DNA from: an uncultured Alphaproteobacteria bacterium
GTDB taxonomy: Bacteria > Pseudomonadota > Alphaproteobacteria > Rickettsiales > UBA1997
Direction of reading: 5' to 3'
DNA length: 34,683 nucleotides
Assembly: GCA_903849835.1 (NCBI GenBank)
Contig: CAINKA010000081.1
Span: 1 to 34,683, forward strand
The position numbers were made by a program, and so were the translations under genes. The stretch's first letter is position 1, and every line of letters begins with the position of its first letter. Below are positions 963 to 30,299 of the stretch, one piece after another. The notes beneath the pieces were generated by a model. The model was not told where the DNA came from and searched no databases. It was given only the letters and a program-made list of their open reading frames with translations.

Positions 963-974
963 TTTAGGAGATTC

Positions 975-1148
975 ATGTCACTAGGAATGGGAGAGTTATT
1001 GTTAATTCTCGTAATTGTTTTTGTACTTTTCGGAGCAGGAAAATTGCCGCAAGTAATGCAGGATATCGGCAAAGGAATTAAGGGGTTGAAGAAGGGGTTG
1101 AAGGAAGAAGAAAAAACTAAAGAAGTTGAAAAAAATAAATCGGAATGA
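975..1148 (+). CDS. tatA: Twin-arginine translocase subunit TatA/E (57 aa, below the ORF-track cutoff)
   Basis: ATG at 975 lies 5 nt after an AGGAG Shine-Dalgarno. Translation is MSLGMGELLLILVIVFVLFGAGKLPQVMQDIGKGIKGLKKG...: one TM helix, the FG-x-KLP hinge and an amphipathic Lys-rich tail typical of TatA. TGA at 1146-1148. Confidence 0.85.
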   Translation: MSLGMGELLLILVIVFVLFGAGKLPQVMQDIGKGIKGLKKGLKEEEKTKEVEKNKSE

Positions 1149-1150
1149 AG

Positions 1151-1265
1151 TAAATTTTAGATTTAGGATTTTAGATTTTAGATTTGTTTGATCAGAGTTA
1201 CACCAATACAAATAAAGGCGAGAACAGCCTTAAATCTAAAATCTAAAATCTAAAATCTTAAATTT
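1151..1265. repeat. Inverted arrays of an 8-bp tandem repeat (TTTTAGAT x3-4 / ATCTAAAA x3-4) around a ~45-bp spacer
   Basis: Left arm is 1151-1185 (aaattttagatttaggattttagattttagattt). Right arm is 1231-1265 (taaatctaaaatctaaaatctaaaatcttaaattt) and is its imperfect reverse complement. Window positions 1-13 (ttaaatctaaaat) repeat the start of the right arm. Confidence 0.85.
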
Positions 1266-1271
1266 CCCCTC

Positions 1272-1883
1272 GTGCTTCCTCATAAAATCATAACAACCCA
1301 AGTAATCGAAGATGTCGTAAACAAATCTTCTGCTGATCGCATTCCGGTGCGCGATTTGGTTGAGGCAATGGAGGCTATTGGCTTTGGTTTGGTGATGATG
1401 ATTTTTGCTTTTGGCATCGTCATTCCTTTGCCACCGCCATTTCCCAGCATCATCTCAATTCCACTGGCAATTTTTTCTTTACAAATGGCGCTTGGATATT
1501 CCGCGCCGAAATTGCCAAAAAGATTTTCAGATTTGTCGGTAAAAAGATCGGTCTTGGCGATGTTGGTGCAGAAGTCTTCCCCTTACATTCGTAGGGTTGA
1601 AAGGATCTTGAGGCCACGACTTTCATTCATGACTTATGGCATCATGGAAAGAGTCATCGGAGTTTTTACTTTGATTTTTTCCGTCTCAATTTTTCTGCCA
1701 ATACCTCTTTCCAACTTCATTCCTGGACTTGGAATTTTAATTATTTCTTTCGGACTTTTGGGAAAGGATGGCCTAATTGTGATCATCGGGCTAATTGTTG
1801 GAAGCATTGGTATCGCGATTACAACCGCTTCAGTTTTTTTAGGCGTCGAAGTTTTTAACTATCTCAAAGGGCTGATCAACTGA
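1272..1883 (+). CDS. ExoD-family (exopolysaccharide synthesis) inner-membrane protein
   Basis: 203-aa ORF with a GTG start. The N-terminal 'VRDLVEAMEAIGFGLVMMIFAFGIVIPLPPP' segment, the 'PKLPKRF' motif and several TM helices resemble ExoD family proteins. No clear SD. Confidence 0.65.
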   Translation: MLPHKIITTQVIEDVVNKSSADRIPVRDLVEAMEAIGFGLVMMIFAFGIVIPLPPPFPSIISIPLAIFSLQMALGYSAPKLPKRFSDLSVKRSVLAMLVQKSSPYIRRVERILRPRLSFMTYGIMERVIGVFTLIFSVSIFLPIPLSNFIPGLGILIISFGLLGKDGLIVIIGLIVGSIGIAITTASVFLGVEVFNYLKGLIN

Positions 1884-1897
1884 TCTTAAAAATAATC

Positions 1898-1925
1898 TTG
1901 ACACTACTAATCCCGTTTCTACAAA
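1898..1925 (+). promoter_or_regulatory. Putative sigma70-like promoter of rho, followed by a C-rich/G-poor leader
   Basis: TTGACA (1898-1903), 16-nt spacer, TACAAA (1920-1925). The ~95-nt leader before the rho ATG is visibly C-rich and G-poor (rut-like). Confidence 0.3.
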
Positions 1926-2022
1926 GCGCGGCCTCATTCCGCTGTTCACTTCCTTTATCAGTTTTTCGAATCTTCCATTTTCTTCCCTTCTAAACCAACT
2001 TTACCAATCAATTTTTTTATAA

Positions 2023-3585
2023 ATGTCATCATCAACGCTTACATTGCGCTATGGCGCTAATCCTGCTCAAACCGATTCTCAAGAGCAGCAAAATACTCAA
2101 CCAGCTCCAGTCCAACCAAACCAAAATTACAACCAAAATAGCGAGCAACAAAATCGTTTCGACGCTCCGCGTTTGCACACCGGAAATTTACTCAGTCGTG
2201 GCAATCAAGCTGCTGTGCCAAGCGTTTCAAGCTCTCACTTTAGCAGTTCCTCGCAAGTTGATTCAGACGATGAAGATGATTGTCGTGTAGACAATAAACG
2301 CCCAGTTAACGGCGGCAAAACGCTCGAGCTAAAATTCTTAAAAACAAAATCTGCAGAAAGCCTGATCGAAGTGGCCAAAGAATACGGTCTCGACAATATC
2401 GGCGACTATGGCAGACAAGACATCATCTACCACATTCTAAAAAATTTCTCCGATCAAAATTTTGAAAATGTGATTCTTGGAGAAGGGGTGTTGGAAGTTT
2501 TAGAAGATGGATTTGGATTTTTAAGAGCGCCTGAAACCAATTATTTCCCAGGCTCGGACGATATTTACGTTTCGCCAAGTCAGATCAAAAGATTTGGTTT
2601 GCGCACGGGAGACACGATCAAAGGTCAAATTCGCGCGCCGAAAAAAGGTGAAAGATATTTCGCTCTGCTTCGCGTCAATGAAGTGAATTTGGGCTCTCCC
2701 GACAAAATCAGAAATCGTGTTTTATTTGATGACTTAACCCCGCTTTATCCGCAAAAAAAATTAAATCTCGAAGAAGATAAGCCGATTAATAACGATATCA
2801 GCACGAGAATCATCGACATGATTGCGCCGCTCGGAAAAGGTCAGCGCGCCTTGATCGTCGCGCCTCCAAGAACTGGTAAAACTTCTTTGATGCAAAATAT
2901 TGCTCACGCAATCACCTCGAATCATCCCGAAATTATTTTGCTAGTTTTGTTGATCGACGAACGTCCGGAAGAAGTGACCGACATGATCAGAACCGTGAAA
3001 GGCGAGGTGGTAAGCTCAACTTTTGACGAGCCTGCAACGCGTCACGTGCAACTTGCCGAAATGGTGATTGAAAAAGCGCGTCGCTTAGTTGAAGCAAAAA
3101 AAGATGTCGTAATTTTACTCGACAACCTCACGCGTCTAGCACGCGCCTACAACACCGTCATTCCTTCATCGGGAAAAGTTTTGTCAGGTGGCGTTGATTC
3201 AAATGCGTTGCAAAGGCCAAAAAGATTTTTCGGTTCAGCCAGAAATATCGAAGAAGGTGGATCGCTAACCATCATCGCAACTGCGCTCGTTGAAACCGGA
3301 TCAAAAATGGATGAAGTTATTTTCGAAGAATTTAAGGGAACCGGAAATTCTGAAATCATGCTTGATCGAAAAATTTCCGACAAAAGAATTTATCCTGCCA
3401 TCGACATCACAAGGTCTGGAACCAGAAAAGAAGAGCTTCTGACCGATCGTGCAACTTTGTCGAAAATTTGGATGTTGAGAAGAATCGTCAACCCGATGAA
3501 TCCAATCGACGCGATGGAATTCTTGCTTCAAAAAATCGAGCACACTAAGACAAATGAGGAATTTTTTAAGTCGATGAACAGCTAA
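2023..3585 (+). CDS. rho: Transcription termination factor Rho with a ~100-aa N-terminal Q/N/S/P-rich extension
   Basis: 520 aa. Carries the RNA-binding GFGFLR motif, Walker [12 protein letters not shown] and [10 protein letters not shown]. The canonical N-terminus ([23 protein letters not shown]) only starts near residue 101. Confidence 0.9.
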
Positions 3586-3597
3586 ATTTGACTACGA

Positions 3598-3780
3598 CTT
3601 GCAATAAAATCCGATGTCATGCTGAGCCTGTCGAAGCATGATTCAGGTCATCTATACCCAAGCCAATTCAAGAAACCGATGTGTCATGCTGAGCCTGTCG
3701 AAGCATGATTCAAGCCACCTAGTCAAGATCATGCTTCGACAGGCTCAGCATGACATCGGATTATTTTTTAAGATTGCAAT
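3598..3780. repeat. Composite of three copies of the 'GTCATGCTGAGCCTGTCGAAGCATGATTC' palindromic core (two direct, one inverted)
   Basis: Copies at 3611-3645 and 3676-3712 are direct; the copy at 3728-3760 is inverted. The outer flanks (aaaatccgat / atcggatt) extend the inverted repeat. Lies between rho and the OmpA-like gene. Confidence 0.85.
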
Positions 3781-3791
3781 TTGTCTATTCA

Positions 3792-4763
3792 ATGAGATCC
3801 AGAATAGTTCTTCTCCTCATCATCATCCCCCTCCTCACCTCCTGCGTATCTTCGCTCCAACGCCTCTCAGAAAAAGAAAGTTCGCTTAAAACTCAAGGCG
3901 GATACGACTCTTACCTCGCGTTAGAATATTTGGAATTTTCACGAAATCTTGTGGTGATAAAAGATCACAGCAAATCAAAATATTTTGCGGAGAAAGGCTT
4001 GGCTGTAATTGCTGGAGCGGATGTAATTCCTGAAGATCCGGCAAAATGGAAAGCGGATCCTGTGCAAATGGAAGAAATGATTTTGATGCAGAGACGTCTC
4101 GAGATGGTGATGATGGTGCCGCACATGCGGTTCTACATGCCAATCCAACTTGCGCATTTGAGCTATCTTTACGATTGCTGGATTAGTCGTGAATCAAAAG
4201 CAGTGTTTCGTGCAGATGAGTTGGCACAATGTCGCACCAGATTCTACAAGCTTCTGGATGAGGTTGAGCTTTACATCGACGATCTCAAAAAAGACAAACA
4301 GCCGAAGGTCGAAATTAAAGAACCTGAATTCGAACGATTCGAAATTCTCTTCGATTTAAACAGCTCAAAATTCAACGACAAAGCCAATAAAGATTTGGTC
4401 GCAACCATTAAGCATCTTCTCACTTTAAAAGGCGATTACCGCATACTTTTGGTGGGAAATGCTGATCGAACAGGGCGCGAACTTTACAATCAAAACTTGG
4501 CGTTAAATCGCGCAGAAGTTGTAAAAAATTATTTGGTAAAAAACGGAGTTGTGAAAGATTTAATCGAGCTGCGTTCAGTCGGAGAGGACTTCCCCGACAT
4601 TATCACAAAATCTGGCATGCAGCAGCAAATTAATCGCACGGTTGGAGTTTATGTGCTGAAAGGTTTCGGATCTTTTTCATCTTTTCCTTTGCCATTGATT
4701 GAAAATTATGTTTACCGTGAAGAGGTGAAGAAAGCGCGTGCAGAGCGGGGGTTGAAGAATTAG
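3792..4763 (+). CDS. OmpA/MotB-domain lipoprotein
   Basis: The start was moved to ATG 3792, because the tracked start at 3750 lies inside the repeat. It then begins MRSRIVLLLIIIPLLTSC (lipobox LTSC). The C-terminus has OmpA-like peptidoglycan-binding motifs (NADRTGRELYNQNLALNRAEVVKNYL). Confidence 0.75.
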   Translation: MRSRIVLLLIIIPLLTSCVSSLQRLSEKESSLKTQGGYDSYLALEYLEFSRNLVVIKDHSKSKYFAEKGLAVIAGADVIPEDPAKWKADPVQMEEMILMQRRLEMVMMVPHMRFYMPIQLAHLSYLYDCWISRESKAVFRADELAQCRTRFYKLLDEVELYIDDLKKDKQPKVEIKEPEFERFEILFDLNSSKFNDKANKDLVATIKHLLTLKGDYRILLVGNADRTGRELYNQNLALNRAEVVKNYLVKNGVVKDLIELRSVGEDFPDIITKSGMQQQINRTVGVYVLKGFGSFSSFPLPLIENYVYREEVKKARAERGLKN

Positions 4764-4800
4764 TCCGCTTGCGTTTCGCTACAGCGCGATTGGGAGTTAA

Positions 4801-5928
4801 ATGAAAAATATGAAATTTGATTTACAAAACAAAAAAAAATTAGTCGTAAAAATCGGATCTTCGCTGCTCGTTGCTGACGGAAAATTGCGCGAAAAATGGC
4901 TGAAAAATTTTGCCGAAAATGTTGCGGAATTAATCGAAAAAAAAATTGAGATCACGATTGTTTCTTCAGGCGCGATTGCTCTTGGACGTGCCGCCCTCAA
5001 GGTTTCAGACAAAAAATTATCTCTCGAAGAAAAACAGGCGGCGGCAGCAATCGGACAAATTCAGCTAATGAGTTTTTACCGTGACGCTTTCAAAAAATTT
5101 AATCTCAATGTTGCGCAGATTCTTCTCACAGCCGCTGATTGCAACGCTCGCGACCGTTATCTCAATTGCAAAAACACCATCGAAACTCTGCTAAAAAATC
5201 GCGTCATTCCGATCATTAACGAAAATGATTCTGTGGCGGTGGATGAAATAAAAATTGGCGACAATGACCGACTCGCTGCCCGCGTGGCTCAAATGATCTC
5301 AGCTGATGCAATGATTTTATTTTCCGACATTGACGGGCTCTACGATAAAAATCCGAAAGTCGCAAAAAACGCGCGACTAATTCCTCAAGTTTTTGAGATC
5401 AGCAAAGAAATTGAAAATATGGCCGGAAGCTCGACGTCGCTGGTCGGCACCGGTGGAATGATTACCAAAATTCTCGCCGCAAAAATGTTGGTTAATTCCG
5501 GATGCGATTCCGTAATTACCAACGGCACCGAAAATAATGCGCTGAAAAATTTGGTCGCTGGCAAACAAAATTGCACAATTTTTTACAGCAAAAAAAAATC
5601 TGAAAAGTCGCGCAAACAGTGGCTTTCCGGCTTTTTGAACGCGAAAGGTGAGGTGGTCGTAAATCAGTGTGCTGCCTCCGCCCTGCGCAGTAAAAAAATT
5701 AGTTTACTGCCGATCGGCGTGATTGCCGCGCGCGGAAATTTCGAAAAAGGCGAAGCAATTTTTGTCAAAGACGAATCAGGAAACCACGTCGCCAGCGGCA
5801 TCAGCAACTATTCCGCAAGTGACGTCAAAAAAATTTTAGAAAAAAAATCCGCCGAGGTGAAAAAAATTTTTGGAAGTGGTGCGAAGAAAGAAATAATCCA
5901 CGCCGATAATTTGGTGGTTAGTGCGTAG
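4801..5928 (+). CDS. proB: Glutamate 5-kinase (with C-terminal PUA domain)
   Basis: 375 aa. Amino-acid-kinase N-terminus VVKIGSSLL, NENDSV, DNDRLAA, then a PUA-like C-terminal part. The TAG stop (5926-5928) lies inside a GC-rich repeat (gcgTAGgggctggcc). Confidence 0.9.
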   Translation: MKNMKFDLQNKKKLVVKIGSSLLVADGKLREKWLKNFAENVAELIEKKIEITIVSSGAIALGRAALKVSDKKLSLEEKQAAAAIGQIQLMSFYRDAFKKFNLNVAQILLTAADCNARDRYLNCKNTIETLLKNRVIPIINENDSVAVDEIKIGDNDRLAARVAQMISADAMILFSDIDGLYDKNPKVAKNARLIPQVFEISKEIENMAGSSTSLVGTGGMITKILAAKMLVNSGCDSVITNGTENNALKNLVAGKQNCTIFYSKKKSEKSRKQWLSGFLNAKGEVVVNQCAASALRSKKISLLPIGVIAARGNFEKGEAIFVKDESGNHVASGISNYSASDVKKILEKKSAEVKKIFGSGAKKEIIHADNLVVSA

Positions 5929-6035
5929 GGGCTGGCCTTGTGCCAGCCCGCACCAGCAACTGTAAAATTTCCGTAGGGGCGGGGACCCCCCCACGTGTCC
6001 GCCCGCACGGGCGACCACAAGGGTCGCCCCTACAA
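5925..6035. repeat. Cluster of GC-rich palindromic elements (GTAGGGG...CCCCTAC family)
   Basis: Three stem-loop units. Unit 1 is 5925-5953 (gtaggggctggccttgtgccagcccgcac). Unit 2 is 5973-6008 (gtaggggcgggg...gtccgcccgcac). Unit 3 is 6009-6035 (gggcgaccacaagggtcgcccctacaa). They are strikingly GC-rich against an AT-rich background. Confidence 0.85.
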
Positions 6036-8204
6036 AGCGTGAGGCGATCTCCTATCGCCAGTCACTGCTGCAGCACCAGCGCCAGCCGCATCCGGAGCCG
6101 GAGCATCCAATCCAGCCTTCAATAATTCCAAAAATTTTGTGTTGATAGCTTCTACCCCAAGATCTTCCGGAGATTCTGCGATGAATTTTTTCAACGATTC
6201 GAAATGAGCTAAATTTTTTCTATGCGTGAGTTGAGTCAAATTTTCTATATTCAAGCCTATTTCCAATCCTTTTTTTAATTCTTCTTCCAGCGCTATACAT
6301 GACTTGATGCTTATGTCTGAAATTGCCTTGCAAAAAGTTTCTAATTTCTGATCTGTTATGTCGGGCATCGTTTCTTTAAGATTTTCAAGAATACGCATTC
6401 TTTCTTCAGACGTGCTGCGAATAGTGAATCTTTGAGCACTAATGGGAGATAAGCCGATGTGAAGCGCTTTTAGTTGCAACTCACCTTTAAGATGTCGAAT
6501 TTCATTGAATTTTGCAGTGATTTCACCATCCGTTGTTTCAGGATTTCTTTCTCTAAAATTTTGAAGATATGAAAGTTGGAAATTGGTGTGAGGCTCTGCA
6601 TAACCAAAATATCTTTCTGCAATTTCTAGCGACAAACCAAGATCCATGGCTTCAAATTGAAGGTCTGAAAATGTGACAAGTTTTTGGTAGATTTCTCCTA
6701 ACCGCTCTTCATCAAGTAAAGGATCTTTTATTTTTAGCTTTTTGAGATGCGTTAATTTTTCAACATCCTCATCTTGCACAGTTTTAGCAATTTCCAACGA
6801 CAAACCAAGGGTTGCAGCTTCAAATTGGATGTTTCTAAAAAAAATAATTTCGCCATATGCTGCGACCAGCTCATCCACCGTCAGGCTTGGTTTTTTTGTT
6901 TTCAAATTCACTACAAAATTTACATTTTCTAAATCACCATCTCCAATCAAGAGTTCTTGGATTCCCATATTTTCCGTTGTTGAGTGAATAATTTCGTCAG
7001 AAAAACCAAGCTCTCTTTTCGCAACGCATTGCGGATAATTTTCGCATCCCTCAATGCTCTCAAATATCTCTCCAATTGTTTTTGCTTTTTCTTCATCTGG
7101 CAGTTCCGATATTCTTCGATTTCCAACCACTTCATTCACGAGATATTTTAAAAGAAAATTATCTTCCCACTCATCTCCGATTAATCTTTCGGCCAGTGCT
7201 ACATCTAATCCTAACATCAACCCTTTGAATTGATTTTTGTGGGTGAAAATCACTGTTTGTCCAAAAATTTCCGTCATTTCTTCTACGGTTTTTAACGACC
7301 TTCCTTCATCCAATAATTTTTGCTTTAACTCTACGAGATAAACCAAACTTCTATATCCATTATTTTCAACTGTGGCCACAAATTCGGGTGAAAAACCTAA
7401 ACATGTTGCAAGAAGTTTGTGTGTTGGATGGAGAATAAGTTCTTCGTAAATTGCTGCTAAGTTAGCTGTAGGATCATCTTTTCTAATTTTTTCCAGATAC
7501 TGAATTTCAATCAGATAAGGCTTGTGTCGCATAGCTCTGTCGTAATCAAACCCAAGATTCAGAATTGCAAAAAGCTGCTCGTCATCAATCGATCGGAGTT
7601 GAGTTACAGCTTCGCGAAATGTAAGCTCTGGAATGTGAAGTGTTGCCTCGTAAGGCGTTACAGACGGATTATTTGCTAATGCAGCTTCAATCATCTCCTT
7701 ATTTTTTCGCAGCGCATCTCGGATGAATGGAATCATCTTTTCTTTATGCTTTGCTAAAATTTCTGAGCGCAGAAAAAAATTCACATCATCACCATCATCG
7801 CTGATGACAGAAGAGCCGTCGGTGGAAAATTCTTTTTTTATTTCCAATCTTGTGGATTCAACGCGATCAGCAATCTCAGCGCATAATGCCTCTCCTTCAT
7901 CGTGAGTTAGTGGCGCTCCACTCTCCACAAAATCTTCATCCAACCGAGTAACGCTGGAAAGTTTTACCGAGTAACTACGAGTTTCTGCGGGAGTAGTAGT
8001 GCGATCATCAATCGATAGAAAAGTAGGTCGTCCTTTTGCGGTAACTGTAGTTTGTAATCCATCGCAATTGTAGACTCCTAGTCCATTACCGGCATCGGGG
8101 TTTATACCAATATCGTGAAAAGGTCGAAAGATCTTTCCGGTATTTTTAAAAATCTGTTTTTCCGCAGAAGCTGCGGCTGTAGCTGAAGATGAAGGTCTGG
8201 CCAT
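6030..8204 (-). CDS. Hypothetical 724-aa protein built of ~56-65-aa tandem repeats (recurring ...QFEAxxLGLSxEIA... motif)
   Basis: Long intact ORF. Recurring motif examples: ILNLGFDYDRAM, LATCLGFSPEFVATV, LMLGLDVALAERL, KRELGFSDEII, FEAATLGLSLEIAKTV, FEAMDLGLSLEIAERY, LKALHIGLSPISAQRF, GLEIGLNIENL. The two best-conserved units are 168 bp apart at DNA level (6619 vs 6787). The C-terminal tail and TAG stop lie in GC-rich repeat DNA. Confidence 0.7.
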   Translation of the reverse strand: MARPSSSATAAASAEKQIFKNTGKIFRPFHDIGINPDAGNGLGVYNCDGLQTTVTAKGRPTFLSIDDRTTTPAETRSYSVKLSSVTRLDEDFVESGAPLTHDEGEALCAEIADRVESTRLEIKKEFSTDGSSVISDDGDDVNFFLRSEILAKHKEKMIPFIRDALRKNKEMIEAALANNPSVTPYEATLHIPELTFREAVTQLRSIDDEQLFAILNLGFDYDRAMRHKPYLIEIQYLEKIRKDDPTANLAAIYEELILHPTHKLLATCLGFSPEFVATVENNGYRSLVYLVELKQKLLDEGRSLKTVEEMTEIFGQTVIFTHKNQFKGLMLGLDVALAERLIGDEWEDNFLLKYLVNEVVGNRRISELPDEEKAKTIGEIFESIEGCENYPQCVAKRELGFSDEIIHSTTENMGIQELLIGDGDLENVNFVVNLKTKKPSLTVDELVAAYGEIIFFRNIQFEAATLGLSLEIAKTVQDEDVEKLTHLKKLKIKDPLLDEERLGEIYQKLVTFSDLQFEAMDLGLSLEIAERYFGYAEPHTNFQLSYLQNFRERNPETTDGEITAKFNEIRHLKGELQLKALHIGLSPISAQRFTIRSTSEERMRILENLKETMPDITDQKLETFCKAISDISIKSCIALEEELKKGLEIGLNIENLTQLTHRKNLAHFESLKKFIAESPEDLGVEAINTKFLELLKAGLDAPAPDAAGAGAAAVTGDRRSPHAL

Positions 8205-8317: not shown

Positions 8318-8552
8318 TGTCATGCTGAGCCTGTCGAAGCATGATTCATGGCACGGTGCCTAGACCCTGTTGACATTCATTTTTATTTTCATTTTTTCAC
8401 AAATTTTTGCTCTTTTTTGCGTAAAATTTCTCGAAATATTCCCGATATTCCAAAAAATTTTACGCAAAAATCGCTAAAAATTTCTGAAAAACTGAAAACA
8501 AAACTGAATGTCAACAGGGTCTAGAATCATGCTTCGACAGGCTCAGCATGAC
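8318..8552. mobile_element. 235-bp MITE-like nested palindrome carrying the GTCATGCTGAGCCTGTCGAAGCATGATTC core at both ends
   Basis: Left arm is 8318-8347 plus 8360-8379 (ctagaccctgttgacattca). Right arm is 8505-8524 (tgaatgtcaacagggtctag) plus 8525-8552. There is an internal second inverted repeat, ttttgcgtaaaatt...aattttacgcaaaa (about 8415-8469). No coding capacity. Confidence 0.65.
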
Positions 8553-8566
8553 GATGAAGGTTGTGG

Positions 8567-8998
8567 TTATTTATTTTTAGAGGGACTTCTTGCTCGTGTG
8601 ACAAGTGGAGCTGCAGACGCGCTAGCAATAACTCCACCTAAAAGAGCGGAAACTTCTCGCGATTCTTCACCACCTCTGATCGCTCTTAAAGTTGGCGCCG
8701 CAGCTGCCACGACTTCTGCTCTACTTCCTCCAATTTCACATGTCGTAACTGTTCTTACGTCAGCTCCAAACCCAGTTATTCTGCGCAAGTCTCTTGTAAC
8801 TTCTGCAAATCTCTTCGCTACATCTTCTATAAATTTTTCTTTGGGATATGTTTCTGAATCTTTACGTTTGGCCACCATTTCTTTTAAAGCCTTATGGTAT
8901 GCAGAACCTGTCGTGCAAAGCTCAATCATTTCTTCGGATAATCCTAATCCACGAGCCATTTCTTTGCCCGCATCTACCGTTCTTACTGGTCTACTCAT
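8567..8998 (-). CDS. Hypothetical 143-aa protein with an Ala-rich C-terminus, translationally coupled to the upstream methyltransferase
   Basis: Its ATG overlaps the methyltransferase stop (8995-8998). The composition is protein-like, whereas the overlapping + strand ORF 8508-9011 is Ser/Leu/Ala-rich and looks like a shadow ORF. No family recognised. Confidence 0.5.
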   Translation of the reverse strand: MSRPVRTVDAGKEMARGLGLSEEMIELCTTGSAYHKALKEMVAKRKDSETYPKEKFIEDVAKRFAEVTRDLRRITGFGADVRTVTTCEIGGSRAEVVAAAAPTLRAIRGGEESREVSALLGGVIASASAAPLVTRARSPSKNK

Positions 8999-9594
8999 CT
9001 GTAAAAAATAGTTGTGTTTTTAATGCGAAGTTGCCCCGGAGCGATTCCAAAAAAATCTTGTTTGGTGAAATTTTTTTCAGCGAAAAAATCAAAAATTTTT
9101 TTATAATTTCTTCGTTCGGAATCGTCGAGAATGATTCTGCCGTTTGGCTTCAAAGCTTCAATCGCATTTTTAGCGCATTCGAATCTTTTTAGGGAATCGA
9201 TGATGATGAAGTCGAATTTTTCTCCAGAATTTTTAGGAAAATTTTCGTAAAAATTATTCGTGAGCCCATCAGGCATTAAATTTATTTTTACGTTTTGTAG
9301 GGGCTGGCCTTGTGCCAGCCCACGGTCGGCCACAAGGGCTTCCTCTACAATCTCCCCCCACCTCTCATCCGTCTCCAACCCAACAATTTTTTTCGCTCTC
9401 TCCGCAAAAAATAAAGTTGAAGCGCCGCAGCCAAATTCAAAAACTTCGTGATTTTTTGTGAGATTTTTTTTGAGGAATTCAATCGCGGGATAAGTCATCC
9501 ACGGCAGTGCCGCGCCATTTTCATCTTGGGAAAAACCTTCGATGAAAGATTTTTTCCAACCGATTTTATTTTTTTCAAACTGCTCTTTTAGCAT
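8995..9594 (-). CDS. Class I SAM-dependent methyltransferase, containing an in-frame GC-rich repeat insertion
   Basis: Motif I is VFEFGCGASTLFFA, post-I is VGLETD, and a later motif is FIIIDS...NGRIILDD. The segment ...EEALVADRGLAQGQPLQN... is encoded by the repeat at 9295-9350. Confidence 0.75.
   Translation of the reverse strand: MLKEQFEKNKIGWKKSFIEGFSQDENGAALPWMTYPAIEFLKKNLTKNHEVFEFGCGASTLFFAERAKKIVGLETDERWGEIVEEALVADRGLAQGQPLQNVKINLMPDGLTNNFYENFPKNSGEKFDFIIIDSLKRFECAKNAIEALKPNGRIILDDSERRNYKKIFDFFAEKNFTKQDFFGIAPGQLRIKNTTIFYR
9295..9350. repeat. Complete 56-bp GC-rich palindromic element inside the methyltransferase CDS
   Basis: Sequence is ttgtaggggctggccttgtgccagcccacggtcggccacaagggcttcctctacaa. 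It is near-identical in architecture to the copy at 21462-21517. Confidence 0.85.
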
Positions 9595-11710: not shown

Positions 11711-12748
11711 TTATTTAGTTTCGGTCTGAATTTCTTGCGAAGATGAACTTATGACTATTGTTGACCAAAGTTTATTTTTTAACTTCTCTACTTTGACGGA
11801 AGTATATTCATATGGCTTTCCCTGAACAGTTACTACTCGCCAGAAATCATTATTATTCTTGCGGATCTCAATATGAAGAAGTGATCCATCTGAAGCCGTA
11901 ATAGATCCATAGCATTCCCAAGACTGAATTCCGTCTTTTTCAGAATACTTTCCGCCATCACTAAAGCTCATACTTTTGGCATTAGCCTTTCCAAAGAGAT
12001 CAACGTAGGTGTTTAATGATACAGTTCCACTTTCAAGACCCAAGACAACAAAAGCATGGTCGGTTATTTCGCTAAATGTGTATACCTTTTGTCCTTGCTC
12101 ATTACTATCGGGAGCATTTTTCCATTCTGCATCAATTGAGGCTTCTGCTTTAGTTACTGGATTTTGCCAAGTGTACGGTGGCGACCCTACTATTTTTTGC
12201 GCTTTAGTATTACTCTCTTGTTGGATGAATCCCATGTAAAATACTAGAACGATACCGGCCACTGCGATAAGAGCTCTTAGTAATTGAAACCTAGATAGCT
12301 TTTCGGAAAAAACCTGAAATCCATAGCGCTCGTCATAAGTAGTTCTCTGCCCTTTATCTATTAACTTCTGCTGCTTATTAAATGTCCACAATGAGAAGAG
12401 CGGTAAACCAAATGCAAAACCGGAGCACCATACTCCAAAAGCGCGTTTTAACCAGTCCTTCAAAGAGATCTTTCCGAGTTTTTTTATATGTATACCCAAA
12501 AGATATTTACCCAAACTATTACCAAAAAAATGACAAATTAAGGCATCCAAGATTAGGGCAAATGGAATAAAAACGATTCCTAGAATACGGTCAGTATGTG
12601 GATTATTTATCAGACCAGTGTACCAAGTTGAGTATTTTGCCAAAGTCATTTCAGCAAAAAATCCTATCAACATTATCTCGAAATAGAGATCAAACATGCG
12701 AGCAAAAAAACGGCGCCAAGAGCCAGCTGTAGGGAGTATTAATTTCAT
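11711..12748 (-). CDS. RDD-family membrane protein with a ~170-aa C-terminal soluble domain
   Basis: The N-terminal half has RDD hallmarks: WRRFFARMFD (Arg), LILDAL (Asp), GNSLGKYLLGIHI, and TYDERYGFQV (Asp), with 3-4 TM helices. The C-terminal domain (from about residue 178) is unrecognised. Confidence 0.65.
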   Translation of the reverse strand: MKLILPTAGSWRRFFARMFDLYFEIMLIGFFAEMTLAKYSTWYTGLINNPHTDRILGIVFIPFALILDALICHFFGNSLGKYLLGIHIKKLGKISLKDWLKRAFGVWCSGFAFGLPLFSLWTFNKQQKLIDKGQRTTYDERYGFQVFSEKLSRFQLLRALIAVAGIVLVFYMGFIQQESNTKAQKIVGSPPYTWQNPVTKAEASIDAEWKNAPDSNEQGQKVYTFSEITDHAFVVLGLESGTVSLNTYVDLFGKANAKSMSFSDGGKYSEKDGIQSWECYGSITASDGSLLHIEIRKNNNDFWRVVTVQGKPYEYTSVKVEKLKNKLWSTIVISSSSQEIQTETK

Positions 12749-12798
12749 TTTGAGATTTGTTTAATAAAAAAAAGTCTGTCTAGGAAGGGACTTAAGCA

Positions 12799-13086
12799 TT
12801 AAATACTATGTAAAAAAAGATTTGCATCTTTTAGAAACCGCATCTCCAACTTTCTTCTTTCGATTCTTTCTTTTACATAGCGACCACTTCTTAAGTTGGT
12901 TTGCTTAATTTTTTTGATGCCGTCATTAGTTCTCGCCCCTGTTGACTTGCCGCCATGCATCCTACATCTTCCATTTTTCATCGCCGGTGATTTGCAGGAG
13001 TTTTTGGCTCTAGTTTTAGCTCCACACTTTTCAGCGTCTTTGATGTTAAATTTTTGTTTGCATGGGGTGATGTTTCTACTTTTCAT
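12799..13086 (-). CDS. HGGxSTG-motif small protein (mobile-element associated)
   Basis: CGAKTRAKNSCKSPAMKNGRCRMHGGKSTGARTNDG matches the Cys-rich 'HGGxSTG' domain seen in alphaproteobacterial phage/plasmid proteins. Confidence 0.6.
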   Translation of the reverse strand: MKSRNITPCKQKFNIKDAEKCGAKTRAKNSCKSPAMKNGRCRMHGGKSTGARTNDGIKKIKQTNLRSGRYVKERIERRKLEMRFLKDANLFLHSI

Positions 13087-13723
13087 TTTTCCCCACCCCT
13101 CCTTTTATCAGCTCCTCTATGCTGTTATTGATCTGAGTATTAGCTGTTCCAATGAAAGCTTTTCCGCCATCATTGATGTTGATGTGCTCAACAGTAATTT
13201 TCTGATCACCCTTGCTGCGATATTTTTTTAGCGCATCCATTTGAGCTAAATAAGTTCTGCTAAATTTGGTGGCTCTGCTAATATTCTCTTCAACTCCGTA
13301 GTTGGTTTGATCCTTTAAACCAGCTCTATAAAACGACCTCATCGTCATATTATGCACAGCAATCATCTGAGTTATTAGCATTGTCTCCAGAGTATCTCTT
13401 GGCTTTAACTCTTTGATGAGACTGACCACGTAATTTATATTATTTTCCGTGTAGTCGTCGCCATAAAGATTACTAACACAAGATAACAGGTTGTTAAAAA
13501 CAGTTTTATTTGTGGTGCCTAAACTTTGGTACATTTCTTGAGATATTTTATCCCCCAAAGTCTTTGGTGAGGTTTTATCAATCGTCATTCCAAGAGAATT
13601 ATTTTTTGTTTTCTTGAGGCTAAAATCAAATCTGCCAGAGACATACCCCATCTCATCTGTAAGTGGTTTTTTATCTTCATTTTGAATAAACATTTCTTTT
13701 GTTTTTGTGCTATTTTTTGCCAT
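13076..13723 (-). CDS. Hypothetical 215-aa island protein
   Basis: Overlaps the next ORF by 11 nt. The C-terminal pattern ...LETMLITQMIAVHNMTMRSF...ALKKYRSKGDQKITVEHININDGGKAFIG resembles conserved unknown proteins that accompany HGGxSTG genes in mobile islands (from memory, unverified). Confidence 0.55.
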   Translation of the reverse strand: MAKNSTKTKEMFIQNEDKKPLTDEMGYVSGRFDFSLKKTKNNSLGMTIDKTSPKTLGDKISQEMYQSLGTTNKTVFNNLLSCVSNLYGDDYTENNINYVVSLIKELKPRDTLETMLITQMIAVHNMTMRSFYRAGLKDQTNYGVEENISRATKFSRTYLAQMDALKKYRSKGDQKITVEHININDGGKAFIGTANTQINNSIEELIKGGVGKNEK

Positions 13724-13727
13724 AAAA

Positions 13728-14222
13728 TTAAGTGATTATTTGATTAATAAAGTCGGTGACTTGCTGTGAATTAACGGAAATTTGTTTTTCTTTTGCGTAA
13801 AGAGTGGCGATTTCTTGATTGGCTTCATCTTCCGCAAGAGTCCTATTCATATGTATTGGCAAGGCTTCATATTCTAAAATTGCCGCTCTCTCGTCGAAGA
13901 GATATTGGTATTTTTCTAGATCAGATTCTTGCTGGTTTTGAGACTCTTCTGGAATGTTTGACATTCTTGTCATTGTTGACGATGTCACTAAATTCAAAGC
14001 CTCATCATAGCTATTTCTTCCGTCACTCTCTGACATTTTAAAAGCTTTTTGCTCATCCTTTAAACCATAAAAAGACTTCACAATGTCAACACTGTCAAAG
14101 TTACTGATATTGTCTGAGAGCTTGGCGCGACTAACTTCAGCAAGAAAGTCAAGAATGTCAGACGCGGAGCTGGCTTGGTGGTAAAAGTCAGAAGAATTAT
14201 TTCTCATTTGACCACCTCTCAA
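13728..14222 (-). CDS. Hypothetical 164-aa acidic island protein
   Basis: Overlaps the upstream DUF3987 ORF by 26 nt. The C-terminal 'FDERAAILEYEA' motif resembles a motif common in phage/plasmid replication-module proteins (from memory). Confidence 0.5.
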   Translation of the reverse strand: MRGGQMRNNSSDFYHQASSASDILDFLAEVSRAKLSDNISNFDSVDIVKSFYGLKDEQKAFKMSESDGRNSYDEALNLVTSSTMTRMSNIPEESQNQQESDLEKYQYLFDERAAILEYEALPIHMNRTLAEDEANQEIATLYAKEKQISVNSQQVTDFINQIIT

Positions 14223-15867
14223 TCAAATCTTGGTGTAGCTTGTAAGAGTATTTCTCTTTCTGTTGGTATGCTGCTTCGGTATGCCTTTCGACGAGGTGAT
14301 TGTGATCAACTAAAACACTTATGATTCTCTCAAGATCATCATCTTTGTATGAGCCAAACTTTCTTCCCAAATCTCGTTTGGTAAATTCGCCAAAAAAGAT
14401 GTTTTGTTTTTCTCCTGATTGAAACTTTTTTCTTATCTTCTCAATCAACTCCAAAGCTTTGCTTTTGTGCCTGCCTTCGCCGCTTAAAATTCCATAAATT
14501 CTTCCCGCATGGCTTTCGAGATAAGCGCAGAAGAGAATTGCTTTTACTAGAGTCGCGGCATCAATCGCTCTTTGATTCTTATCATTCTTGACGAGATAAA
14601 AAATCAGGCACAAAGCTGGTAAAAGTTTGTGATATTTACCAAGATGTTGCGAGAGTAAGTTTTTACCCTCTTTGTAAAGCTTTAAAGATTTCTTACTGGT
14701 CTCAACATACCAACGTTGATAAATTTTTTGCGCCTCATCATCAAAAGAAAAGTAAGGGTAGGTTTTACCATCTTTCTCGATTGACCCACTTGAGCAGCTA
14801 AAAAAATCACTATTGTTTAGAAAGCGAACAATCGCAGAAATTTTACTTCTAGCCTCTTCATTTGGTTTTTCATCAACGTATTCAAAGCTGTCAATTGGAT
14901 CTGGGTAAACCAATAACTGAAACCTTTGCAATAAACCGTCGTTAAGGCTGTTTGCGGCTCTTTCTAAATAAGTTTTGATCTTGTCGTGTTGAGTTGTTCC
15001 AACTATTGAAATTGAGGCGTTTTTGGCAAGTACAGAACCTCTGCCAATAGTATCGCTTCTAAAGGTTGAATTTCCGTTCCACATCTCAAGAAAATAGGCT
15101 CGGTCAGCTTCATGTTCTTTTTTATCTAAATTTGAAAAGAACGCAGAAAGTTCGTCGCGCTCAAGAAGGATCGAAGAGTTTTTGTTGTCTCTTAAAATTT
15201 CGGTAATTTTTTGAGTAGTGCCATCTTTGATTATGAATCTTTCTAGGCAGACTCTTTCAGGATCTTGAAGGCTGCACAACCTATCTTCAATTTGCGTAGT
15301 TGATGCGCCGCTTTTTTTTATCAGTTTTTTAAACTCCTCCTCCAAAGCCTGCTTGGTGTTTTTGTATTTACTCAACTCTTTTTCGTACTGAGCTTTTTTG
15401 CTGTCATAATCTTCTTGGGCTTTCATCTCTAGTGGTGAAAAGAAAAACAAAGCCTGCTTTAAAGAGTCAGATTTTCTTGAGCTGGGATTTCCGATTACTC
15501 CGCCCCATAAATTGGCAAAGACGCAAAAATCATCTTTTAATTTTGGTTTGATTGTCGCCTTGCCAGCTATTAAAGAAGACAGGCCGGTGATGAGCGGAAT
15601 TGCGATGAATTCAGGAGGTACGGAAAGGCCTTTAGAAGTATCATCCACAAACTCTTTCAGCTCAGTTGGTAAAAATAGCTCGGTTTGAAACTTTGCAACC
15701 TCCGCCAAATCGTTGCTGCTTACTTGCCTTAATTCACCACCAGCATTTGAGTTGCGAAAATCATCCATGCTGGTGAAGCCCATTTTAAGGGCTAAGTCAG
15801 CTTCTAAGCCTTGCTCTTCTAAGCCTTGCTCTTCCAAGCTTGCTGGTTTTTTGTTATAGGGAAGCAT
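14197..15867 (-). CDS. DUF3987 (YfjI-like) protein, putative primase/helicase-associated replication protein of the island
   Basis: 556 aa. Its position directly after alpA, its size and its N-terminal region (LPTELKEFVDDTSKGLSVPPEFIAIPLITGLSSLIAGK) are typical of DUF3987 proteins of CP4-57/P4-like islands. Confidence 0.6.
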   Translation of the reverse strand: MLPYNKKPASLEEQGLEEQGLEADLALKMGFTSMDDFRNSNAGGELRQVSSNDLAEVAKFQTELFLPTELKEFVDDTSKGLSVPPEFIAIPLITGLSSLIAGKATIKPKLKDDFCVFANLWGGVIGNPSSRKSDSLKQALFFFSPLEMKAQEDYDSKKAQYEKELSKYKNTKQALEEEFKKLIKKSGASTTQIEDRLCSLQDPERVCLERFIIKDGTTQKITEILRDNKNSSILLERDELSAFFSNLDKKEHEADRAYFLEMWNGNSTFRSDTIGRGSVLAKNASISIVGTTQHDKIKTYLERAANSLNDGLLQRFQLLVYPDPIDSFEYVDEKPNEEARSKISAIVRFLNNSDFFSCSSGSIEKDGKTYPYFSFDDEAQKIYQRWYVETSKKSLKLYKEGKNLLSQHLGKYHKLLPALCLIFYLVKNDKNQRAIDAATLVKAILFCAYLESHAGRIYGILSGEGRHKSKALELIEKIRKKFQSGEKQNIFFGEFTKRDLGRKFGSYKDDDLERIISVLVDHNHLVERHTEAAYQQKEKYSYKLHQDLIERWSNEK

Positions 15868-16078
15868 CTTTGCCTCCGTTCTGATTTTTGTAGCTCTCTA
15901 CAAGAGTTTTGATGTCTTCAATTGCCCAAGCTGTTGTTCTTTCTCCAAGTTTTACAGGCTTTGGAAAGCGACCATCTTTGACGCCATCCCACCAAGTTGA
16001 TTTTCCGATTGGAAATATTTTTAAAATTTCTTTGACTCTGAGGAAGCCGATTTCTGGAAGTAAGTTTTTTTGTTGCAT
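15854..16078 (-). CDS. alpA: AlpA-family transcriptional regulator / excisionase-like HTH protein
   Basis: The start was moved to the internal ATG at 16078. MQQKNLLPEIGFLRVKEILKIFPIGKSTWWDGVKDGRFPKPVKLGERTTAWAIEDIKTLV matches the AlpA/MerR-like phage regulatory motif (FPxPvKlg.R...W). Confidence 0.8.
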   Translation of the reverse strand: MQQKNLLPEIGFLRVKEILKIFPIGKSTWWDGVKDGRFPKPVKLGERTTAWAIEDIKTLVESYKNQNGGKDASL

Positions 16079-16170
16079 GTTTTTTACCGTTTTAATTAAA
16101 CAAAATTTGTTCAACGAGGAACGGCAAAAGCTTACGATGTATCTTTTGGTCTTTGAGGGAAGTGGATTAG

Positions 16171-16206
16171 AAAAACGGTAATTACCAAAACAAAAACGGT
16201 AATTAC
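16171..16206. promoter_or_regulatory. Two direct copies of AAAAACGGTAATTAC (core palindrome GGTAATTACC) upstream of alpA
   Basis: Copies at 16171-16185 and 16192-16206. The second overlaps the stop codon of the 313-aa ORF. Located in the alpA promoter region. Confidence 0.4.
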
Positions 16207-17144
16207 TCTTTTTTGGATTGGTCTTCTTCTAAGGATTTTTCTACATGTAAGCGGATCGTCTTTTCATCCATATCAATGCCAGCCTCTGTGGAGATGGTTT
16301 TCTTGATCATCGAGACTCTATTGGTTTCACTTTTTCTATAGTGCTTTAGTACTAAGCCGCACAAGATTTTATACAAAGTTGTGACAACCCTTTGATCCTC
16401 TTTCCGTTTTGCTTCTTCTTTGAGATTTTTGTTTTCTTCCGTTAGTTTAAGATTTTTCTCCTCAGCAGTTGTAATTCTTTTTAGCGCATCCTCAAGAAGA
16501 GTCTTGTAATCAGGAGATTTTTCTAAAGTTATCAGCAGTTCTTTTGGCAATGAAATGTTTTTTGCTATTGCCCACTTTACATAGTCTGCGGGAATAATTT
16601 TTTTGTCAGTCATTTTAGGAATCACTCCTCCTGCACCAGTGGGTATTAGTTGTAGAGTTCCTATTCTTAACGATCTTGAGACCAACTCAAATAAGGTCGA
16701 GTATTTATGTGCAAAGGGTGATTCAAGATAATTCTGAACTCTTGCTAAATTCGTCATTCTTGGATCCTTGCCAAGCGTAAGGGCTACGCATTCATCGACA
16801 GTCCAATAATCAGCTAAATGCCAATGTTCCCAAATCGTATTCATAGCTGGATTATGAAATAAATCATAGTCCATCTTCTCTAATTCTATTTCATGCTTTG
16901 TTTTTCTTTTTGAGATTAACTCGTTATATAGCTCATCAAGTTTTTTTGGAGAATAAGAGGAAATTTTCTCCTTACATTCTTCTGCTTTTCTGGTCTCCTC
17001 TTTGTAATCAAGGGCATTACATTCATTTAAATCATAGCTCGAATTGTACTTATTGCTAAAACTCAGATGAGGAAATTTATCAAAAACCAGTGATGATATT
17101 TTTGATTCCTTGGTGTTCGGATTTGGTAGCTTTGTCATTATCAT
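16203..17144 (-). CDS. Hypothetical 313-aa protein with a C-terminal coiled-coil-like segment, translationally coupled to the integrase
   Basis: Its ATG (17144-17142) overlaps the integrase TGA (17143-17141). No family recognised. The Lys/Glu-rich heptad-like stretch is EEKNLKLTEENKNLKEEAKRKE. Confidence 0.6.
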   Translation of the reverse strand: MIMTKLPNPNTKESKISSLVFDKFPHLSFSNKYNSSYDLNECNALDYKEETRKAEECKEKISSYSPKKLDELYNELISKRKTKHEIELEKMDYDLFHNPAMNTIWEHWHLADYWTVDECVALTLGKDPRMTNLARVQNYLESPFAHKYSTLFELVSRSLRIGTLQLIPTGAGGVIPKMTDKKIIPADYVKWAIAKNISLPKELLITLEKSPDYKTLLEDALKRITTAEEKNLKLTEENKNLKEEAKRKEDQRVVTTLYKILCGLVLKHYRKSETNRVSMIKKTISTEAGIDMDEKTIRLHVEKSLEEDQSKKE

Positions 17145-18322
17145 TTTCCTCTCAGTTTTTTATCTAAAAAATCCGCCCACCACTGCATCATAACTTTACG
17201 TTCAGGCAAATATTGCGCATGGTTGTAAGCCGCTCTTACCTTATCTCTTTCGCCATGAGCAAGCTGGCGCTCAATATGATCTCTATTAAAACCATTCTCA
17301 TTTAATATTGTGCTCGCTGTCGAGCGGAATCCATGTACAGTCACTCTCGAATGATAACCCATGCGATAAATTGCACCAAGAAGAGTATTCTCACTCATAA
17401 TTTTTCCAGGACTTTGCTTGCTTGGAAATATACACTCATGATTGCCATTAATTTTTTGCATCTCTTTTAAAATGGCGAGAGCCTGTTTTGACAAAGGCAC
17501 GATATGCTTTTCTTTCATCTTCATTCTGCCAGGCGGTATGTGCCACTCTTTCTTATCGAAGTTAATTTCTTCCCATCTTGAGCCACGAACTTCAATTGTT
17601 CTGACGAAGGTCAGGATCAAAAATTTGAAAGCCATTTTGGTTTGATATTCACCATCATAATTTTCTAATTTTTTGAGAAATTCTGGCAGCTCATCTTCTT
17701 CTATTTTGGCATGATGAGTTGTGGTTTTTGGTATTAAGGCACCCCTTAAATCTGCTGAAATATCGTGCGTAGCTCTGCCACTTGAAATTGCGAATCTAAA
17801 AATCTGACCAGAAGTTTGCAGTGCGCGATGCGCGATATCTATCGCACCACGCTTTTCTATTTTTTGGATAGTTAGAAGCAGTTCTGGCGCAGTGATTTGA
17901 TTGATAGGGCGAAAGCCAATAACCGGCACAATATCTGTTTCTAATCTTTTAAGAATATTGCGAGCATGCTTTGGTTTCCATTTTGAAATATTTTTTTGAT
18001 GCCATTCGCGAGCTATATTTTCAAAAGAGTTTTCTGCACTAACAATTCTTTGAAGTTTTTGTTCGCGCTTTTCTTGCGACGGGTCAATTCCTTCAGCAAT
18101 TTGTTTTTTGGCTATGAATCTTTTGTCTCTCGCTTCCAATAGAGAGACGGTGGGGTAGGTGCCAAGTGCTAAGATTTTTTCTTTACCAGCGAACTTATAT
18201 TTAAGTCTCCAATATTTCCCGCCATTGGGATGAACCAGCAAATACATGCCCTCACCATCAGTTATCTTAAATTGTTTATCGGTTGGTTTCGCGTTTCTGA
18301 CTTTAATATCTGATAAAGGCAT
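17141..18322 (-). CDS. int: Tyrosine recombinase/integrase (P4-type, DUF4102 N-terminal domain)
   Basis: 393 aa. N-terminus LSDIKVRNAKPTDKQFKITDGEGMYLLVHPNGGKYWRLKYKFAGKEK. Catalytic region has R (FVRTIEVRG), HGFRSTAST and RQLAHGERDKVRAAYNHAQY (R-H-R-H-Y). Adjacent to the tRNA 3' end. Confidence 0.92.
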   Translation of the reverse strand: MPLSDIKVRNAKPTDKQFKITDGEGMYLLVHPNGGKYWRLKYKFAGKEKILALGTYPTVSLLEARDKRFIAKKQIAEGIDPSQEKREQKLQRIVSAENSFENIAREWHQKNISKWKPKHARNILKRLETDIVPVIGFRPINQITAPELLLTIQKIEKRGAIDIAHRALQTSGQIFRFAISSGRATHDISADLRGALIPKTTTHHAKIEEDELPEFLKKLENYDGEYQTKMAFKFLILTFVRTIEVRGSRWEEINFDKKEWHIPPGRMKMKEKHIVPLSKQALAILKEMQKINGNHECIFPSKQSPGKIMSENTLLGAIYRMGYHSRVTVHGFRSTASTILNENGFNRDHIERQLAHGERDKVRAAYNHAQYLPERKVMMQWWADFLDKKLRGK

Positions 18323-18328
18323 GGAGTT

Positions 18329-21461: not shown

Positions 21462-21549
21462 TTGTAGGGGCTGGTCTTGTGCCAGCCCGCGGGCGACCAC
21501 AAGGGTCGCCCCTACAAAAGAGCTGCGACCACAAGGGTCGCTCCTACAA
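21462..21549. repeat. GC-rich palindromic element (complete 56-bp copy plus an extra half unit)
   Basis: 21462-21517 is ttgtaggggctggtcttgtgccagcccgcgggcgaccacaagggtcgcccctacaa. The extra half at 21523-21549 is gctgcgaccacaagggtcgctcctacaa. Confidence 0.85.
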
Positions 21550-21585
21550 ACATCCGCAAAACCAAAAATATCCACCTTTTTTCCA

Positions 21586-29933: not shown

Positions 29934-29964
29934 CTTGTAGGGGAGATCCTTGTGGTCGCCCGTC
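29934..29964. repeat. Half unit of the GC-rich palindromic element (inverted orientation)
   Basis: cttgtaggggagatccttgtggtcgcccgtc is the reverse complement of the gggcgaccacaagg..cccctacaag unit. It starts immediately after the hpf stop codon. Confidence 0.75.
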
Positions 29965-30222: not shown

Positions 30223-30299
30223 TTGTAGGGGCGGACCCACGCGTCCGCCCGCTGCAACCTAACAAAACATTGCATGGGCGACCCATATGTCCGCCCGCC
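30223..30299. repeat. Two GC-rich palindromic units (gggcggac...gtccgccc type)
   Basis: 30223-30252 is ttgtaggggcggacccacgcgtccgcccgc. 30276-30299 is gggcgacccatatgtccgcccgcc. Both resemble the unit at 5973-6008. Confidence 0.8.

Follow-up and report, generated by a model that had tools for sequence, protein, structure and literature searches.

A GTAG-tagged REP dimer read in frame within a methyltransferase gene of a Rickettsiales-like lineage

Rickettsia palindromic elements (RPEs), RPE-1 to RPE-10, were reportedly described by Ogata et al. in 2000 and 2002. They are 100–150 bp long (PMC1779305) and are found in frame, at surface loops, in proteins of Rickettsiales hosts (PMC10969869). Another group of repeats, the repetitive extragenic palindromes (REPs) carrying the tetranucleotide tag GTAG and sorted into 24 numbered families, was defined together with their head-to-head (HH) dimers by Di Nocera et al. 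2013 (PMC3733652), while REP doublets forming hairpins (REPINs) were treated by Bertels and Rainey 2011 (PMC3116915), and REPs with the REP-associated tyrosine transposases that mobilise them (RAYT, also TnpA-REP) by Nunvar 2010 (PMC2817692). Di Nocera et al. recorded intragenic REPs in a number of species, over half of them as dimers or groups encoding 20–30 amino acids; their Additional file 3 lists intragenic GTAG REPs in Opitutus terrae, Pseudomonas putida, Stenotrophomonas maltophilia and others, encoding approximately 7–38 amino acids, among them an O. terrae 'Methyltransferase type 11' and peptides such as VGAGLPA and RPAPT. The same study found that intragenic CGTC repeats of R. conorii correspond to RPE-4 and RPE-6, which places these RPEs in the sister, CGTC-tagged REP superfamily. 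The subject of the present analysis is a 56-nt palindrome at positions 9295–9350 of a 34,683-nt stretch from an uncultured Alphaproteobacteria bacterium (contig CAINKA010000081.1; the whole stretch is referred to below as the window), read in frame within a gene for an S-adenosylmethionine (SAM)-dependent methyltransferase. Probably, a REP-dimer copy became coding in this gene, replaced about ten of its codons, and was tolerated and kept.

The GC-rich palindrome (TTGTAGGGGCTGGCCTTGTGCCAGCCCACGGTCGGCCACAAGGGCTTCCTCTACAA) lies wholly within the minus-strand open reading frame (ORF) 8995–9594 and is read there as 18 residues, V83 to Q100, directly after I82, in the context ...GEIVEEALVADRGLAQGQPLQNVKINL.... 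Coordinates and translation agree with the original prediction, in which a complete 56-bp copy inside a methyltransferase ORF, with the frame open across it, had been noticed. The sole stop codon within the element is the TAG of TTG-TAG, and two of its three frames are open across the 56 bp, so that an open frame by itself is only mildly informative. The second copy, at 21462–21517, had been described as intergenic and of the same architecture, and it is indeed an A-B dimer like the coding one, 86% identical to it over 56 nt (48 of 56 positions), situated 110 nt past a tRNA-Leu gene (21265–21352) and ahead of a VirB6-like gene that begins at 21586. Neither arm is expected by chance: the left arm (27 nt, at most three mismatches) occurs at three sites in the window as compared with 0.00 expected from 100 dinucleotide-preserving shuffles, and the right-arm motif at eight sites, again with 0.00 expected from dinucleotide-preserving shuffles.

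Each half of the element consists of an unpaired GTAG followed by a GC stem of 7–8 bp closed by a CTTGT(G) loop. The two units, 25–27 nt in length and designated A and B (Table 1), are inverted with a spacer of 3–4 nt and have different stems, forming a heterodimer. Unit A is intact; unit B, for which the consensus is GTAG-GGGCGACC-CTTGT-GGTCGCCC, has decayed in the coding copy, the arm at 9323–9350 retaining 76% identity to the consensus with its hairpin broken. The centroid fold of the dimer pairs its two ends, and folding as RNA gives −25 kcal/mol for the coding copy of the window, −25 to −30 kcal/mol for coding copies in general, and −35 kcal/mol for the intergenic copy. GTAG starts ten of the 11 units found in the window, the remaining one starting with GCAT. 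The element is thus a short imperfect palindrome with GC-rich stem-loops, as REPs are (fold z-scores of −3.9 for the coding copy and −5.8 for the intergenic trimer), and an inverted REP pair with a short spacer, able to form one long hairpin, as REPINs are. It does not resemble a MITE (miniature inverted-repeat transposable element), since no direct repeat is present at its junctions (acgtTT/GTAG...CTAC/AAtc) and its length suits a REP dimer; a search of the whole window against Rfam in E-value mode returned no family matching the GTAG element. The 56-bp element is a head-to-head, REPIN-like heterodimer of GTAG-tagged REPs and belongs to a described superfamily.

Table 1. Positions of the methyltransferase gene, of the REP dimer and its units, and of the remaining GTAG-tagged REP sites in the window.
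Feature	Position	Strand or reading	Remarks
Host gene, 199-aa class I SAM-dependent methyltransferase	8995..9594	-	Operon with dTDP-glucose 4,6-dehydratase
GTAG-tagged REP dimer, tags outside (head-to-head, REPIN-like)	9295..9350	minus-strand reading V83-Q100	DNA fold -16 kcal/mol, z-score -3.9
REP unit A	9297..9321	+	GTAG-GGGCTGG-CCTTGTG-CCAGCCC, hairpin intact; encodes GLAQGQPLQ, loop before strand 3
REP unit B, decayed	9326..9348	-	GTAGAGGAAGCCCTTGTGGCCGA on gene strand; encodes VEEALVAD, last turn of helix B
Intergenic A-B dimer (21462-21517) and third B-type unit (21522-21550)	21462..21550	.	Downstream of tRNA-Leu; z-score -5.8
Intergenic REP cluster, three units (types A, C, B)	5923..6036	.	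Between convergent proB and 724-aa genes
Single REP unit, partly decayed	29935..29963	+	Begins 2 nt past stop codon of hpf-like gene
Two tandem variant units, GTAGGGGCGGACCCACGCGTCCGCCC and GCATGGGCGACCCATATGTCCGCCC	30225..30298	+	Upstream of thioredoxin/NHL gene; 46-nt period, 2.1 copies

The same class of repeat is widely distributed. Scanning one genome per species for the pattern GTAGGGGC-N4-CTTGTG-N4-CCC, which fixes GTAG and does not demand stem pairing, returned at least 164 units in at least 119 genome loci. Among the matches listed, the phyla and other groups represented are Acidobacteriota, Chloroflexota, Bacteroidota, Desulfobacterota, Parcubacteria, Gammaproteobacteria, Latescibacterota and others; 45 distinct stem variants occur, the free stem positions of which pair in 92% of cases as compared with 52 ± 4% after shuffling (maximum 64% in 1000 shuffles), in keeping with the covarying sub-families typical of REPs; and 57 of the 164 units have a head-to-head partner at most 70 nt away. 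Exact copies of unit A were found on 30 metagenome contigs with GC contents of 0.29–0.64, for which reason its use as a lineage-specific marker was rejected. An independent case of a coding unit A was met on metagenome contig L152 (1013–1037), where the exact unit is in frame as VGAGLVPAR within a minus-strand ORF of 1077 aa (453–3686), DNA-methylase-like and with an NPPY motif.

RAYT genes were sought in the window and in all loci by tblastn with 11 RAYT/TIRYT sequences taken from Additional file 5 of PMC3733652. In locus L023, the ORF 3952–4728 scores 34 bits with the Pfam family Y1_Tnp (cut-off 23) and has REPs of the element's class on both sides, and RAYT remnants stand beside REPs in L096, L106, and L145, the last of them adjoining two exact copies of unit A. 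The L023 region 3600–5500, from a metagenome-assembled genome (MAG) of Candidatus Poriferihabitaceae, forms a REPtron-like locus in which the RAYT ORF is flanked by ten copies of the element's REP class; the predicted N-terminus of this ORF itself passes through REP sequence (GHPQGAPL).

Comparison of the window protein with 120 orthologues (121 sequences in all) revealed a segment GLET..LMxDGL of 30–33 aa in 100 of them (83%); a length of 40 aa is confined to the window and proteins P0001–P0003. The REP-derived segment is missing from 117 of the 121 sequences, including relatives with 81–84% protein identity. Two of these, P0004 (84%) and P0005 (81%), carry IVKSTVDGRQSTVK at the insert site, encoded by 4.4 copies of the heptamer AGTCGAC (L002 1829–1859; L003 3753–3783), and the DNA alignment likewise shows the position of the element filled by other sequence in L002 and L003. 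The insert has a GC content of 0.65–0.70 in a gene of 0.36, which marks the GC-rich segment as derived. The coding copy is repeat-derived and not native, as the original prediction had proposed on finding that it looked like an insertion; the proposed gain of about 17 residues, in contrast, has to be revised, because only 8 residues (24 nt) were gained as compared with 18 encoded. A 56-nt element with a net gain of 24 nt implies that approximately 28–32 nt of earlier sequence (about ten codons) were lost or replaced. The three insert-bearing lineages also share a derived change in arm B, GGCCGAC in place of the consensus GGTCGCC, which points to a single origin of the insert.

An AlphaFold2 model of the methyltransferase, built from 45 sequences, reached a pLDDT (predicted local distance difference test) of 92.2, and its Foldseek matches are class I SAM methyltransferases. 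In the model, strand 2 spans residues 69–74 and ends at the invariant E74, followed by helix B (77–88), a loop (89–101) of low confidence (block mean pLDDT of 62), and strand 3 (102–106). The motif VGLETD, which had been taken for the post-I strand, indeed coincides with strand 2. Arm B supplies the final turn of helix B and arm A most of the loop, so that the insert occupies a helix end and a surface loop of the predicted fold, a position for which a structural check had been proposed. The residues encoded by arm B are VEEAL in the window, and VGAAL and VGATL in L001 and L006, respectively; this arm may have drifted from REP-derived Gly-Ala to helix-favouring residues (VGA to VEE).

The host ORF scores just under the curated cut-off of the Pfam family Methyltransf_24, and a search against NCBIfam assigned it to no family. 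Its 317 homologues come from MAGs labelled Alphaproteobacteria or Rickettsiales; in addition, the Rho protein of the window shares a 90%-identity cluster with a protein of a 'Rickettsiales bacterium' MAG, and the window encodes a VirB6/TrbL protein of 1366 aa. The methyltransferase ORF shares 20 nt with the dehydratase gene upstream of it and 4 nt with the ORF downstream, which indicates that it sits in an operon, and the order of the dTDP-glucose 4,6-dehydratase gene followed by the methyltransferase is conserved. Outside the insert, dN/dS values (ratios of non-synonymous to synonymous divergence) range from 0.08 to 0.12 at a dS of 0.33–0.68 among the window, L001, L006, L002, and L003, and seven distinct protein sequences, from independent assemblies, show the insert-bearing ORF uninterrupted. 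The gene thus appears to be functional and under purifying selection. Downstream of it, an ORF of 143 aa (8567–8998, minus strand) has no Pfam match, shows a dN of 0.22–0.37 between close relatives, and possesses a variable, Ala-rich middle part with large indels.

The proposed course of events can be outlined as follows. A REPIN-like unit of the RAYT-associated (IS200-like Y1) REP class would have entered the methyltransferase coding sequence in an ancestor shared by three or more diverged lineages, presumably after mobilisation by a RAYT in the source genome. About ten native codons, where helix B ends and in the loop that precedes strand 3, would have been replaced, with the net gain of 8 residues, either by insertion followed by deletion or by direct replacement. 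A permissive site, together with a frame that avoids the TAG of TTGTAG, would have left the protein functional and allowed the copy, whose peptide may be neutral, to be kept. Later on, the helix-end arm would have drifted to helix-compatible residues while the loop arm kept its hairpin.

Several observations weigh against this account. Fifty-six nucleotides cannot be inserted in frame, and at least one extra step beyond simple insertion is required; to our knowledge, replacement of target DNA is not part of any REP/RAYT mechanism. Among the five close lineages, distances are approximately equal (pairwise dS of 0.33–0.76 in three genes) and star-like, and they do not polarise the REP-dimer against the heptamer state; moreover, the two lineages without the REP carry the heptamer array and not native-looking sequence. 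Neither tblastn nor a profile search detected a RAYT, be it in the window (34.7 kb) or in its relatives, contigs L001–L007, so that mobilisation within the source genome is putative. Finally, the apparent function of the protein is deduced from sequence statistics and a structural model.

A first alternative is that the intragenic REP has been maintained as a nucleic-acid element, serving as a RAYT site, a gene-conversion partner, or a regulatory hairpin in mRNA or DNA, and that the stretch is consequently dual-coding. This seems rather unlikely, despite several features that speak for it. In the insert, divergence at codon positions 1+2 (11%) is similar to that at position 3 (6–17%), unlike in the rest of the gene (4–5% and 20–29%, respectively); its dS is 0–0.15 as compared with 0.45–0.68 elsewhere in the gene; and, old as the insert is, the GC content at its third codon positions is still 0.56–0.67, as compared with 0.34–0.39 for the remainder of the gene. 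Each of the three insert-bearing lineages preserves an intact hairpin A, in L006 by a compensatory double change from GGGCTGG/CCAGCCC to GGGATGG/CCATCCC, both substitutions of which are non-synonymous. Turnover of REP units is suggested by the 3' end of proB: both proB and the 724-aa gene convergent with it end on the TAG of a GTAG tag (5926–5928 and 6030–6032), proB does so in L001 (13441–13443) and L003 (6764–6766) as well, and the unit at this position differs by lineage (L003 versus the others), so that units seem to have been swapped in place. On the other side, the statistics are weak and only three lineages are informative: Fisher tests on third positions gave p = 0.02–0.5 per pair and p = 0.10 when pooled (3/18 versus 62/181), and an initially strong conservation of synonymous sites in the insert (Nei–Gojobori) was downgraded to a trend, the third-position test not being significant overall. 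Arm B has decayed in all coding copies, the dimer is 5–10 kcal/mol less stable there than in the intergenic copy, and a single compensatory pair is an anecdote.

A second reading concerns the site. Repeat-derived sequences of at least four types other than the GTAG dimer occupy the same methyltransferase loop in orthologues, with approximately 19 of the 121 sequences affected. Several of them belong to, or are related to, a second repeat family of the window, a hairpin tagged by (C/T)GTC with the core ATGCT-GAGCCTGTCGA-AGCAT, which is found at 3615–3755, 8318–8349, 8524–8552, and 32393–32421. This family, with six perfect copies of its 21-nt core in the window, agrees with the CGTC-tagged REP type, and its Rfam match to AaHKsRNA41 stays below threshold. 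Single CGTC-type units of this family lie in the loop of P0073 (L158; LVQAQHD), P0079, and P0052, and one in the opposite orientation in P0064 (ILSLSKD), in all cases without gain in length, and a dimer of a related unit was found in P0051 (L157), P0046, and P0092 (EILRFAQDD). The loop of P0027 (L160) contains a near-perfect, in-frame hairpin of approximately 100 nt (501–641 within the gene 243–941; −68.5 kcal/mol as RNA), built of GGTT-GAGCCTGTCGA-AACC units that have the loop in common with the second family and a covarying stem. A dimer of CCCCGTC type is present in P0040 (L159), P0033, and P0012, while the long inserts of P0077 and P0120 are unclassified.

On these grounds, the loop between helix B and strand 3 could be a recurrent sink, in which the same ten or so codons of different orthologues were replaced, often without change in length, by five or more unrelated repeat types (the heptamer array, the GTAG REP dimer, and three REP forms of CGTC type) through a replacement process acting in coding DNA; the swapping of REP units at the 3' end of proB would be a parallel. 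This proposal is tentative and on the whole doubtful. In the window, L157, L158, L159, and L160, the junctions between repeat and gene differ in codon, being scattered across roughly ten codons, which favours a permissive-site filter or repeat-to-repeat turnover over a single sequence-specific target; a nucleotide target shared by the different repeats was considered and is argued against by the same junctions. If the sink exists, REP-into-REP insertion or gene conversion acts inside coding DNA, and intragenic copies stay live, dual-coding members of their families, amounting to natural loop swapping of a protein by selfish DNA.

A single capture of a REP dimer remains the preferred explanation when the other three alternatives are considered. 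A novel selfish palindromic element, unrelated to known families and inserting in frame as the RPEs of Rickettsia do, is very improbable, although the in-frame position, the surface loop, and the Rickettsiales-like host recall the behaviour of RPEs (PMC10969869) and no Rfam family matches. The element has the defining features of GTAG REPs, covarying stems among them, and of head-to-head dimers; in other genomes its class is associated with RAYT genes; a catalogue of intragenic GTAG REPs exists (PMC3733652); and 56 bp falls short of the 100–150 bp of RPEs (PMC1779305). The original prediction of an analogous but sequence-unrelated selfish element consequently gives way to a GTAG-tagged REP dimer of a kind whose intragenic copies are on record in PMC3733652.

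A pseudogene, or an assembly artefact at a repeat with the frame open by chance, is scarcely credible. Two of the three frames would be open anyway, and MAG assemblies can misjoin contigs at repeats; nevertheless, the insert arrangement recurs in independent assemblies from different samples (ENA ERZ27280190, ENA ERZ27272042, and JGI 3300034092), and the window's own methyltransferase protein sequence is found on 6 contigs from NCBI, Logan, and ENA. Moreover, dN/dS is about 0.1 on either side of the element, gene order is preserved, and the neighbouring frames overlap in the manner of a coupled operon. The pseudogene check suggested at the outset thus contradicts decay, the gene being intact in seven protein sequences at dN/dS values of 0.08–0.12. 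Lastly, native loop sequence resembling the repeat by chance or convergence can be dismissed, since, although the loop does vary among orthologues both in length and in sequence, the coding copy agrees with the intergenic one at 48 of 56 positions where no matches are expected by chance, the insert is far richer in GC than its gene, and 117 of the 121 sequences lack the segment.

The window contains 11 GTAG REP units at 5 sites over 34.7 kb, and 4 of these sites are intergenic: one follows proB and the 724-aa gene, one tRNA-Leu, and one hpf, while the fourth lies upstream of the thioredoxin/NHL gene (Table 1). Repeats of other kinds are also present. An intergenic inverted repeat of 80 nt (8360–8524; 85% complementary, 5-nt spacer) is bracketed by the second-family units at 8318–8349 and 8524–8552, giving a MITE-like composite. 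Heptamer arrays of AGTCGTC and GACTTAC form an inverted repeat just past tRNA-His (25858–25942), and two AT-rich tandem arrays with 7-nt units (ATTTTAG and AAATCTA), inverted relative to each other, occupy 1152–1265 between thyX and exoD. The region 11711–18565, adjoining tRNA-Asn (18491–18565), is a probable integrated element with a tyrosine integrase (17141–18322), a DUF3987 protein (14197–15867), an RDD protein, and several ORFs without Pfam match.

The locus offers a clean and datable capture of a REP/REPIN-type repeat into a working protein in a Rickettsiales-like lineage. For annotation, it implies that REP-derived peptides such as GLAQGQPLQ, LRQAQHD, and ILRFAQDD in real proteins need not mean pseudogenes. 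The occurrence of several repeat families in one loop is the more useful result and is worth following up, as the loop provides a natural test bed for weighing protein selection against element targeting in the survival of intragenic repeats, and for the activity of such copies as DNA.

Compared with the described systems, the window's second family is the part that resembles CGTC-tagged REPs, which are found in the methyltransferase loop of L158, L157, and L160 and differ from the 56-bp element in tag, stem, and loop. With RPEs, the element has in common a palindrome in frame in a functional gene, a site tolerated by the fold, and additional intergenic copies, traits shared with intragenic REPs generally and not specific to RPEs. 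The RPE-like behaviour originally noted thus holds as description: the copy is in frame, in a gene under apparent purifying selection, at a helix end and surface loop, and in a Rickettsiales-like host. It is unlike RPEs in length (56 bp, outside the range of 100–150 bp) and in its GTAG tag as opposed to CGTC, a separation drawn from published descriptions only. With GTAG REPs and REPINs it shares the tag, the stem, compensatory sub-families, dimers with tags outside, heterodimers, further copies in the window just after convergent or co-directional genes, and the Y1_Tnp gene of L023; unlike typical GTAG REPs, this copy lies in coding sequence, and no RAYT was seen within 35 kb. The intragenic REPs of Di Nocera et al. 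are likewise in frame, as singletons and dimers, in otherwise normal proteins and encode similar peptides, whereas the present case differs in its Rickettsiales-like host, in the gene concerned, in an insert common to diverged lineages and dated by dS, and in a loop that holds other repeat families in orthologues. The phenomenon has been described previously for GTAG REPs, and the present case is a clear new example of it, by which the 'protein-coding palindromes' of Rickettsia are linked to ordinary REPs.

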